Assembly (NCBI GenBank): GCA_965213925.1
Contig: OZ243927.1
Coordinates: forward strand, 3,872,001-3,936,000
DNA length: 64,000 nucleotides
DNA from: Trueperaceae bacterium
Lineage (GTDB): Bacteria > Deinococcota > Deinococci > Deinococcales > Trueperaceae
Reading direction: 5' to 3'
Below are positions 44,606 through 45,960 of the stretch, one piece after another (the stretch's first letter is position 1; every line of letters begins with the position of its first letter). Under the pieces are notes generated by a model. It searched no databases and was not told the origin of the DNA. It saw only the letters and a list, made by a program, of their open reading frames with translations. The translations under genes were made by a program, and so were the position numbers.

Positions 44606-44637
44606 AAAAAAGCCGCCACATATGTGGCGGCTTTTTT
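44606..44637. terminator. Bidirectional intrinsic terminator
   Basis: Perfect palindrome AAAAAAGCCGCCACATATGTGGCGGCTTTTTT. Confidence 0.9.
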
Positions 44638-44650
44638 ACGGATAAGAAAA

Positions 44651-44776
44651 TTACCGGTTCACTCTAAAAATCTTCGTTGTAGGTACGTCGTTCTTGACGC
44701 TTTTGCCAGCCGACGCTGCACCGAAAAGGCTGAAGGAAAGGGCAACGACCAAGACTTTGATAGCAACTTTTTTCAT
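44651..44776 (-). CDS. 41-aa secreted peptide MKKVAIKVLVVALSFSLFGAASAGKSVKNDVPTTKIFRVNR (absent from the ORF track)
   Basis: GGAGGAG SD 5 nt before ATG; n-/h-region and ASA signal peptidase I site; terminator directly downstream. Confidence 0.8.
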   Translation of the reverse strand: MKKVAIKVLVVALSFSLFGAASAGKSVKNDVPTTKIFRVNR

Positions 44777-44834
44777 AGCATCTCCTCCCAGAGACTTCGC
44801 TTAAAGCGAAAGTGAGTTGTTCCGGGAAGAGTTC

Positions 44835-44905
44835 CCGGCCGGTTGCGCTACTAGCTCCGTCTACCCTAAGCGCCCAATTACAGGATAGAGATCATCGCTT
44901 CCGTG
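44835..44905 (-). ncRNA. Class II c-di-GMP riboswitch (c-di-GMP-II)
   Basis: Minus strand reads GGAAGCGAUGA..UCUAUCCUG-UAAUUGGGCGCU-UAGGGUAGA-CGGAGCUAGUAGCGCAACCGGCC: 9-bp stem, GCGCU/AGCGC pseudoknot, tandem GA kink-turn; matches the recalled consensus. Confidence 0.85.
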
Positions 44906-44994
44906 GAGGCTTTTGCGCCTCGAGATACAATGTAGCATTCATATAGTTAAACTTGCGAGAAGGTTTTTACAAGGGGTTTAGGTAGTGGCGCAGC

Positions 44995-45960
44995 TTACGC
45001 GGCGTTAGGTTGCTCACTGAGCCTACTCAGCGCTGAGATAAAGGCGGACACGACCTCTTTAGGATAATGAAGCCCAGCGTACTGCTTTAACTCACCGAAC
45101 GCTTGCTCGGGGCTTAGGGCCCGGCGGTAAGGTCGATCTGTGGTCATCGCGTCATACGTATCCGCCACAGCCACAACCGAGGACTCGATCAAGATGTCGT
45201 CGCCCGACAGTCCATAGGGGTAGCCCGACCCGTCACGGCGCTCATGGTGCTGCTCGACAATTGCGCCCGCCTCTTTAAGGTAGGTCGTTTCTAACAGCTC
45301 GCGCCCGAAGGTCGGGTGCTGTTTGACAATATGCCACTCCGGAGCGCTCAGCGCGGAGGGTTTTTGTAGGATGTCGAGTGGCACCTTGACCTTGCCCACG
45401 TCGTGCAAGTACGCGCCGTAGTCGAGGAGGTAAAGTCTATCGGGGGGCAAACCCAGCTCTTGCCCGGTCGCGTAGGAGAGCGTCTGCAAGCGGCGGCAGT
45501 GCCCGGCGGTGTAGCCGTCGCGCAGTTCGACCTCGACCGCTAGGCGCATCAACTCGTCGAGTTCTTGGCTGAGGGTATGAAAGATGGGCTTCGTGGTGAA
45601 GTATAAAAAGCGCACTTCGGAGAGCGCTGAGAGCGTGCACGCCTCGTCGAGTCCAGAGGTGACGATATAGTCACCCGTGCCCAGGGTCGACGCGCCGTAG
45701 CGCAAGGTACCCGCTAAGATATAGTACGTTTCGGTCGCGTCCCCTGAAGAGATGAGCGTCATGCGCTCGCCTTGCCTGAGAGTTCCCTCGAGTACCTCGG
45801 TGCCTTGTCCGGCGACAAGTAGCCGCACGTCAACCGCTTTCGAGGCGACCCTCTCTAAACTTTCACCCCGCTTATGAAAGCGTAAACCTAGGGGCGCAGC
45901 GTCTTTCACCGCATTGTCCAACTCTGAGCGTTCATCACACATATTCGCTAAGTATGGCAC
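44995..45960 (-). CDS. HD-GYP cyclic dinucleotide phosphodiesterase with an N-terminal cupin-like domain
   Basis: YTAGHC, LHDVGK, HHERRDGSGYPYGL and DAMTTDRPYR motifs; beta-rich N-terminus (ETYYILAG.L....L..GDYI). Confidence 0.9.
   Translation of the reverse strand: MPYLANMCDERSELDNAVKDAAPLGLRFHKRGESLERVASKAVDVRLLVAGQGTEVLEGTLRQGERMTLISSGDATETYYILAGTLRYGASTLGTGDYIVTSGLDEACTLSALSEVRFLYFTTKPIFHTLSQELDELMRLAVEVELRDGYTAGHCRRLQTLSYATGQELGLPPDRLYLLDYGAYLHDVGKVKVPLDILQKPSALSAPEWHIVKQHPTFGRELLETTYLKEAGAIVEQHHERRDGSGYPYGLSGDDILIESSVVAVADTYDAMTTDRPYRRALSPEQAFGELKQYAGLHYPKEVVSAFISALSRLSEQPNAA

Follow-up and report, generated by a model that had tools for sequence, protein, structure and literature searches.

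We analysed a window of 64,000 nucleotides (nt) from the genome of a Trueperaceae bacterium (contig OZ243927.1; in the source genome, here G000, which comprises 4.75 Mb with 58% G+C, the window corresponds to G000:C1:3872001-3936000). On its minus strand, a gene for a cupin-HD-GYP protein, predicted to be a cytoplasmic phosphodiesterase of cyclic di-GMP (c-di-GMP), is followed by an 83-nt spacer, a c-di-GMP-II aptamer, a 51-nt expression platform with a Shine-Dalgarno (SD) sequence, a 41-codon open reading frame (ORF) for an exported pre-peptide and a terminator. All six parts that an initial annotation of this locus had named were found where it had placed them. Cupin-HD-GYP genes in Trueperaceae and Bacillota are genetically tied to exported partner proteins of a family without a name, which is a new finding. 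That enzyme and partner are functionally linked is well supported, because such pairing recurs beside these genes and because riboswitches have been recruited before the partner gene. The recurrence of the pairing in two phyla makes it likely that the tail of the partner signals to the enzyme. We regard it as a serious possibility, slightly short of an even chance, that the exported peptide in the window is gated by the riboswitch and that its C-terminal tail, ending in IFRVNR, would be the ligand of the neighbouring cupin domain.

The enzyme gene (44995..45960, minus strand, as all features of the unit described below unless stated otherwise) encodes 321 amino acids (aa). Its HD-GYP domain (approximately residues 127-316, nt 45013-45582) is detected as Pfam HD_5 (E 9.8e-30, residues 144-300), and the HD and HHExxDGxGYP motifs do not vary among 29 homologues (H186, D187, H238, H239, E240, D243, G244, G246, Y247 and P248). 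Furthermore, the helical C-terminal domain of the AlphaFold2 model (predicted local distance difference test, pLDDT, 91.2; predicted template modelling score, pTM, 0.81) matched the HD-GYP structures 4mcw, 4r8z and 9rbz in Foldseek searches (E 9e-13 to 2e-11, 26-31% identity). From the intact domain and motifs we infer that the enzyme degrades c-di-GMP. The N-terminal domain (approximately residues 36-122, nt 45595-45855) is all beta in the model and resembles the solved cupins ectoine synthase 5by5, TM1459, Cupin_2 5j7m and 2q1z (Foldseek, approximately E 1e-6). The cupin-HD-GYP architecture proposed initially was thereby upheld, although the domain stays below the Pfam cupin cut-offs (Pirin_C, E 0.005, 17.5 bits versus 27), as does the N-terminal domain of a Bacillota homologue (Cupin_2, 23.3 bits versus 27.2). 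Classical cupin motifs carry conserved metal-binding histidines. Among the 29 homologues, no invariant or near-invariant His occurs in residues 1-125, and the conserved residues of the domain are L47, E55, E77, G84 and G96. Judged from these residues, the domain is likely a non-metal, ligand-binding cupin. The AlphaFold2 model contains neither a signal peptide nor a membrane helix, and Pfam, the model and Foldseek gave no match to tetratricopeptide repeats (TPR).

The pre-peptide gene (44651-44776) encodes MKKVAIKVLVVALSFSLFGAASAGKSVKNDVPTTKIFRVNR, which starts with MKK and continues with a hydrophobic stretch and ASA|GK. Judged by eye, residues 1-23 (nt 44708-44776) are a predicted signal peptide, as had been proposed, and the mature peptide of 18 residues would be GKSVKNDVPTTKIFRVNR (nt 44654-44707) with the conserved tail ...P-x4-F-R-V-N-R. 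As indicated by orthologues, paralogues, codon-position bias and a family hidden Markov model (HMM), this small ORF (sORF) is a real gene. The 41-codon frame, the SD sequence and the signal peptide are kept in relatives, and the differences between G000 and the same-genus genome G001 at codon positions 1/2/3 amount to 7/7/21 for the window gene (p1), 3/0/8 for p2a and 6/1/14 for p2b. Nine aligned sequences all have P32 and N40, and their C-terminus follows the pattern P-x-x-x-x-[FY]-[RE]-[VF]-N-[RC]. Beside enzyme genes, the peptide genes comprise 41-46 codons and their conservation is concentrated in the C-terminal tail, hence the likeness to RRNPP systems noticed initially, i.e. a small secreted pre-peptide gene beside a receptor-like gene, has held in this respect. 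That the sORF might be the N-terminal part of the 156-aa and 190-aa riboswitch-controlled secreted proteins, cut short by truncation, was considered and discarded, since there are orthologues and paralogues with all 41 codons.

The initial annotation had suggested a synteny check, in which enzyme, riboswitch and signal-peptide sORF indeed stayed linked in relatives despite differing flanks. Downstream of the closest HD-GYP homologues in the same genus (G001 and G002), we found aptamers of 30.9 and 47.5 bits with loop insertions and a signal-peptide sORF, and the same arrangement with aptamers of 64.4 and 57.5 bits was found in G005 and G054 of another genus. Across genera, only the HD-GYP gene, the aptamer and the sORF are held in common, and the flanking genes differ. 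A search with the peptide HMM over 128 Trueperaceae genomes gave 11 matches of at least 38 bits and one of 29 bits, and all 12 are situated within approximately 1.3 kb of a cupin-HD-GYP gene; these 12 occur in two genera, and the matches weaker than these are signal peptides of large proteins. A weak match at locus L159 (genome G110) was left out of account. The product might instead have nothing to do with signalling and be a secreted antimicrobial or toxin-like peptide or give rise to a modified peptide. The peptide is small, cationic and secreted, as such an idea would have it, and gives a faint NCBIfam bacteriocin-type match (E 0.0095, 16.2 bits versus a cut-off of 40). That match, however, is limited to the signal-peptide part (residues 1-32), there are no conserved immunity, modification or dedicated export genes nearby, and the constant neighbour is a signalling enzyme. 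We give this explanation hardly any credence.

The peptide belongs to a wider picture. A search with the N-terminal domain of the enzyme found 56 genes in 32 of the 128 Trueperaceae genomes, distributed over 14 of 36 genera, of which 49 were examined (all except two each in G139 and G108 and one each in G053, G070 and G088). An adjacent exported partner was present in 36 of these 49 cases, and in one more (G019) a different signal-peptide sORF was found. Full-length partners consist of 93-118 aa (one of 255 aa), are encoded 10-120 nt downstream of the enzyme gene, carry the motifs QEGxH and HYYIWxCxGxxC, end with [IV]PVDPFxF[SN]x and often start with a lipobox. Mini partners of 41-46 aa are reduced to the signal peptide plus a tail such as IFRVNR, LFEFNR, KFEVNK, KFWPSK or PFRFSR, which can be compared with the full-length ends DPFRFNR and DPFRFNN. 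In three peptides, the tail is repeated in tandem, namely twice in G005c, twice in G001p5 and three times in G054b; the repeated units are PVTNPFRFS[NR] and GFKISN, each present twice, and an NGFTVT-type unit, present three times. Mini peptides were found in no fewer than four genera and account for most of one HD-GYP clade in a quick tree, in which orthologous enzymes share tails.

More distant enzyme homologues with approximately 40% identity were found at 18 loci among the matches listed, 17 in Bacillota and one in Kosmotogaceae, and 12 of these loci adjoin an exported protein that ends with ...[VI]DP-hydrophobic. Most of the matches listed were HD-GYP proteins without relation to the module, and of these matches L054-L072 were used. 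The C-terminal part of the distant partners aligns with the Trueperaceae partners and has the invariant Asp-Pro in common with them. The partner family is represented by neither a Pfam nor an NCBIfam model; no ESM Atlas match of 0.9 or more was obtained, nor any Foldseek match in the PDB at E <= 0.001 for the partner model. The 68 database homologues are unnamed or called 'hypothetical', apart from two additional clusters with an unfitting JGI label. AlphaFold predicts a small alpha/beta domain for the full-length partner (pLDDT 83), in which the last seven residues, i.e. the tail, are without secondary structure. The window peptide shares the features of this family, namely a signal peptide, a cupin-HD-GYP neighbour and a C-terminal aromatic-x-hydrophobic-[NS]-[RKN] end. 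From the tail likeness, seen by eye, and the gene position we infer that it is a miniature member of the exported-partner family. The peptide is therefore no isolated invention and appears to be a reduced member of a wider family. One candidate module was excluded: a non-cupin HD-GYP gene with a downstream riboswitch (G008, L044) is followed by a 183-aa secreted protein outside the partner family.

The source genome carries four cupin-HD-GYP paralogues, of which p1 is the window gene. Behind paralogue p2 (C1:1040172-1041095) lies an aptamer-like element into which 70-odd nt are inserted; it scores 28.2 bits and is thus below the threshold (43.8 bits for the G001 orthologue). Two tandem peptide genes come next, the products of which end with QKFRVNR and QKYRVNR. 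Paralogue p3 (C1:4016593-4017597) is followed, 10 nt further on, by the gene for a 118-aa lipoprotein ending with PVDPFRFNN. In G001, p3 is also preceded divergently by a gene for a 41-aa peptide ending with PVTNPFRFDN; its counterpart in G000 has been destroyed by a dispersed repeat, which left ...TRFDN-stop (C1:4016266-4016400). For p4, no partner was found by simple filters. When the whole genome was scanned for signal-peptide ORFs with a tail of this kind, exactly four matches were obtained, all of them beside p1, p2 or p3, i.e. three of the four paralogues. The dispersed repeat itself has a length of approximately 120-135 nt and is present in G000 with about 12 copies of at least 90 nt and 69-85% identity, none of them in the window; in G001, the p1 peptide gene has the same repeat on its downstream side (L013). 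The surroundings of p3 (G000:C1:4013816-4017963) contain a c-di-GMP-II riboswitch before the gene for a 750-aa secreted metalloprotease-like lipoprotein, followed by p3 and its 118-aa partner, an order that is kept in G001 and G002. Here, a secreted protease adjoins a partner whose tail may need release.

One alternative would be that the sORF in the window is a functionless remnant of a full-length partner gene and its riboswitch a relic. The destruction of one family member in G000 by a repeat element would fit this assumption, as would the large insertions and the scores below the cut-off in related aptamers of the genus. On the other hand, length, SD sequence, signal peptide and tail have been kept in three species and at three to four paralogous loci with an excess of third-position changes. 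Moreover, the mini peptides are spread over several genera and predominate in one enzyme clade as described above, and the tandem repeats argue for selection on the tail. Decay as an explanation of the window gene is, therefore, very improbable.

The aptamer in the window (44828-44911) covers the RF01786 model in full (1-84 of 84) with 69.1 bits versus a gathering score of 53.5 (E 2.1e-13) and is the sole Rfam match within the window. The covariance-model search that the initial annotation had called for was thus clearly positive, and the RNA at 44828-44911 is predicted to bind c-di-GMP. An extended -10-like element TGCTACATT (44929..44937) had been noted initially; the element is present at 44937-44929 on the minus strand, but a consensus scan listed no minus-strand promoter. 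In seven of nine related modules, a TG/GG-n-TAnnnT element was seen by eye 20-27 nt upstream of the aptamer, and the riboswitch-peptide unit is probably transcribed from its own promoter. The box TTGTAAAAAC (44963..44972), also found by eye, lies approximately 40 nt upstream of the -10 element, which is too distant for a -35 element; this TTGT[AG]AAAA-like box may be a regulator binding site. Similar TTGT[AG]AAAA-like boxes exist at the same position in L014, L015, L042, L171 and L173, and TTGTGAAAA-like boxes in related modules. Just 5' of the aptamer model start, and overlapping it, the minimum free energy (MFE) fold shows a leader hairpin GAGGC-GCAAAA-GCCUC (44906..44921), and by eye GAAGG/CCUUC occurs at its position in G005, G055 and G056.

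A strong SD sequence had been noticed initially and was confirmed: GGGAGGAG ends 5 nt before the ATG of the peptide gene at 44776, and the distance from the aptamer end to the ATG is 51 nt. The leader contains three competing pairings. The 3' strand of the aptamer helix P1, CCGGGAA, can pair either within P1 itself or with UUCCCGG in hairpin B (CCGGGAA-CUC-UUCCCGG, 44822..44838), and the anti-SD sequence CUCUUCCCGG (44822..44831), of which the 3' arm UUCCCGG of hairpin B is a part, can pair with the SD region CUGGGAGGAG (44782..44791). With hairpin B enforced, the fold has -53.7 kcal/mol, i.e. 0.4 kcal/mol above the MFE, and with the aptamer helices locked, the probability of the SD sequence being unpaired is approximately zero. 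RNAalifold on six sequences of the genus returned the anti-SD:SD helix, which is also found in the MFE fold of the window, and hairpin B could be formed in 34 of 36 cells across the same six sequences. From this modelling, a translational OFF switch is predicted with moderate confidence, in which high c-di-GMP would lower the peptide output. The platforms of G005 and G054 contain an intrinsic terminator before the SD sequence instead. In the window, the unit is closed by a bidirectional intrinsic terminator (44606-44637, both strands), which was found as annotated initially. It consists of a 14-bp stem with T runs on either strand and also closes a facing convergent ATP-binding cassette (ABC) transporter operon.

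Elsewhere in the source genome, RF01786 has 11 matches in total, eight of them over the cut-off. Directly downstream of ten of these 11 aptamers, ORFs start with a signal peptide or a lipobox (by eye); the remaining one is the first of a tandem pair of aptamers. Besides the 41-codon sORF, which is by far the smallest of them, the ORFs encode large secreted enzyme-like proteins of 390-750 aa and two small proteins, of 156 and 190 aa, that are likewise secreted. Since the other aptamers of the genome precede exported ORFs, the sORF fits a regulon of exported products. Three c-di-GMP-II aptamers are located within 1.4 kb at G000:C1:3694670-3696087 (L001, L005, L008), two of them in tandem, 155 nt apart, before the gene for the 156-aa secreted protein and the third before the gene for the related 190-aa one. 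At G000:C1:3021070-3021156 and 3986137-3986223, an identical riboswitch is followed by the identical start of a 666-aa lipoprotein gene, which indicates a recent large duplication.

Riboswitches have been acquired by the enzyme-partner module in several lineages. An aptamer of the c-di-GMP-II clan lies between enzyme and partner gene in eight modules with scores at or above the cut-off (G000p1, G005, G054, G055, G056, G019, G084 and G060) and in four more with scores below it. The G084 module has a full-length partner of 97 aa, and in G060 (L191:2054-2139) the variant c-di-GMP-II-GAG (RF03169, 55.1 bits versus a cut-off of 40) occupies the same place. Among the matches listed for Bacillota, a c-di-GMP-I or -GGC aptamer was found upstream of the partner-HD-GYP operon at four loci. 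That the module has been joined with different aptamer classes in the two phyla suggests selection for c-di-GMP control of the partner. Extra-hairpin-like insertions of approximately 20 to 75 nt were observed in the variable loop of some aptamers of the genus (L013:1239-1400, L014:2506-2606, L042:1971-2074, L140:2564-2721), because of which the scores in this genus fall below the Rfam cut-off. In a Paenibacillus metagenome-assembled genome (MAG), a cupin-HD-GYP gene without a recognisable partner is closely followed by a c-di-GMP-I-GGC aptamer (L059:3866-3948) that is encoded on the other strand. No riboswitch was seen in 25 of the 37 partner-bearing Trueperaceae modules and in eight of the 12 Bacillota modules (the latter among the matches listed). 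Consequently, the enzyme-partner link is older than the RNA control and does not depend on it. The initial proposal that c-di-GMP gates the peptide thus stays a prediction for the locus in the window, where the aptamer is real, and does not extend to most modules.

This distribution is of importance for the weightiest alternative, an indirect regulatory link. According to it, the peptide and its full-length relatives act outside the cytoplasm, on the envelope, the matrix or another receptor, and the enzyme is adjacent as the setter of the gating c-di-GMP or is simply co-expressed, while its cupin domain senses an unrelated small molecule. Such a scenario is quite possible. It is in line with the position of all other c-di-GMP-II riboswitches of G000 before exported enzymes or surface proteins, with which an ordinary exported regulon would suffice, with the folded, Cys-containing domain and frequent lipobox of the full-length partners, and with the absence of an export signal from the enzyme. 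However, since most modules in both phyla show no riboswitch, the ancestral pairing cannot be due to c-di-GMP gating. Against an indirect link stands also that the pairing is specific for cupin-type HD-GYP proteins, to one of which every strong peptide match is adjacent, and that the cassettes were multiplied as pairs of enzyme and partner.

A further, weak argument against it comes from co-variation, for which a check of peptide against cupin had been recommended initially. In partial Mantel tests (n=33), the divergence of the tail correlated with that of the cupin domain when the catalytic domain was accounted for (r 0.29, none of 2000 permutations as high), and the reverse comparison of tail with catalytic domain given the cupin domain resulted in 0.02 (808 of 2000 permutations). 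In a thinned set of 22, the values were r 0.27 for tail and cupin (23 of 2000) and -0.07 for tail and catalytic domain. Tail divergence thus followed the cupin and not the catalytic domain, but the signal is weak and the compared rows are related. Taken together, the pairing without riboswitches, the retention and repetition of the bare tail, the multiplication as pairs and the Mantel result appear to favour a direct link between enzyme and partner.

For the locus in the window, a direct link could work as follows. The HD-GYP enzyme would degrade c-di-GMP, low c-di-GMP would free the SD sequence so that the pre-peptide is made, and the pre-peptide would be exported by the Sec pathway and cleaved behind ASA. 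Perhaps after further trimming, the tail would then reach the enzyme, in the simplest case by uptake through an oligopeptide transporter as in Rap-Phr systems, and would change the enzyme activity. In this way, c-di-GMP level and peptide output would be coupled in a loop. The source genome contains 13 genes for SBP_bac_5 peptide-binding proteins (Opp/Dpp-type), which speaks for uptake capacity only. An even more general version is possible as well, if doubtful: cupin-HD-GYP proteins could be receptors for gene-encoded peptides, with a partner conserved between Bacillota and Deinococcota that releases its tail and a cognate cupin domain that reads this tail to set c-di-GMP, and in some lineages the partner would have shrunk, been multiplied in pairs and been put under riboswitches.

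A variant without re-import is pre-export sensing, in which the cupin domain binds the C-terminal tail of the untranslocated precursor in the cytoplasm and the enzyme reports secretion load or precursor abundance. The tail leaves the cytoplasm last, and such a mechanism would work alike for 41-aa, 100-250-aa and lipoprotein partners. The tandem tail repeats, however, fit released peptides better, and we consider pre-export sensing very improbable.

Several observations weigh against the tail as ligand of the cupin domain and against parts of the proposed loop. An exported peptide would meet this apparently cytoplasmic enzyme only by uptake or by binding before export, one of which must be assumed. 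The full-length partners possess a folded domain with two conserved Cys, because of which they may act outside the cell on their own. When the peptide profile was aligned with the full-length partners by hhalign, only the signal peptide was aligned (probability 51%). By simple filters, 12 of the 49 examined cupin-HD-GYP genes are without a partner, and in G019 of a third genus, an aptamer of 64.9 bits is followed by an sORF without the tail and with a different end. The p2 aptamers show large insertions and scores below the cut-off. In the co-variation tests, the rows are related and the faster-evolving cupin domain may merely track recent ancestry better. Regarding the RNA, the unconstrained MFE structure (-54.1 kcal/mol) already sequesters the SD sequence, the fixed alignment of six sequences contains no compensatory double change in hairpin B or in the anti-SD helix, and no clear alternative pairing or switch logic was found in the terminator-type platforms of G005 and G054, hence the OFF direction is only a prediction. 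The quorum-like loop without TPR receptor that had been postulated for this locus is partly supported: the genetic module, with its linked paralogous enzyme/peptide pairs and its conserved, repeated tail, and the logic of the feedback have support, and binding of the tail to the cupin domain is a proposal.

The initial statement that no system with such a layout has been described was supported by literature searches on HD-GYP with cupin, HD-GYP peptides and architectures, c-di-GMP riboswitch sORFs and Deinococcus c-di-GMP-II, which yielded no description. The main text of a census preprint on HD-GYP proteins (10.1101/2021.11.05.467447) mentions no cupin, peptide, secreted or riboswitch.

The sensor-domain signal of most HD-GYP and other c-di-GMP enzymes is not known, and the tail of a neighbouring peptide represents a concrete, synthesisable candidate ligand for one type of sensor. 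If the proposal is true, peptide signalling, either from cell to cell or from envelope to cytoplasm, would extend past the Gram-positive RRNPP receptors into Deinococcota, a secreted signal would be tied directly to second-messenger turnover, and a riboswitch would gate a signal peptide. The module would then represent a self-contained feedback circuit of peptide and second messenger and a new TPR-free class of peptide signalling in diderm bacteria. Even with an indirect link, there is a conserved, unannotated two-gene module in two phyla, including an exported family of approximately 100 aa without a name or known fold.

Compared with known systems, the riboswitch in the window is an ordinary member of its family. 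Class-II c-di-GMP riboswitches precede pilus and surface-protein genes in Clostridioides difficile. The aptamer matches the RF01786 model in full and above the cut-off, and like the other ten aptamers of the source genome it belongs to the 5' leader of an ORF whose product is exported. In contrast, the gene here encodes only an 18-residue mature peptide, is terminated at once and is tied to the gene of a c-di-GMP-degrading enzyme, and the platform contains an extra inverting helix that predicts OFF. The enzyme shares the catalytic fold and intact motifs with the solved HD-GYP proteins PmGH (4mcw), PA4781 (4r8z) and DvhD (9rbz), but the sensor domains of these three are, by their entry titles, not cupins, and there was no solved cupin-HD-GYP structure among the Foldseek matches listed. 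In the RpfC/RpfG system of Xanthomonas, a fatty-acid signal of the diffusible signal factor (DSF) type acts between cells, a membrane kinase phosphorylates a REC domain and the HD-GYP phosphodiesterase becomes activated. The module proposed here would likewise convert a self-made extracellular signal into c-di-GMP degradation by an HD-GYP domain, but with a gene-encoded peptide and a cupin domain and without a kinase.

The closest likeness in layout exists to Rap-Phr and other RRNPP(A) systems of Bacillota (PMC3601957, PMC11343458), in which a Sec-type pre-peptide gene of 40-50 codons comes after the gene for a cytoplasmic receptor, which for Rap is an enzyme. Conservation at the C-terminus and several diverged paralogous cassettes per genome are shared as well, and tandem duplicated peptide units are found in some RRNPP(A) propeptides (abstract of PMC11343458). 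However, without a TPR receptor the module is not a member of RRNPP(A): it has a cupin instead of a TPR domain, c-di-GMP hydrolysis as proposed output, a peptide gene predicted to be gated by a riboswitch and a diderm host of the Deinococcota, and its peptides seem to be derived from a folded exported protein of 95-118 aa.

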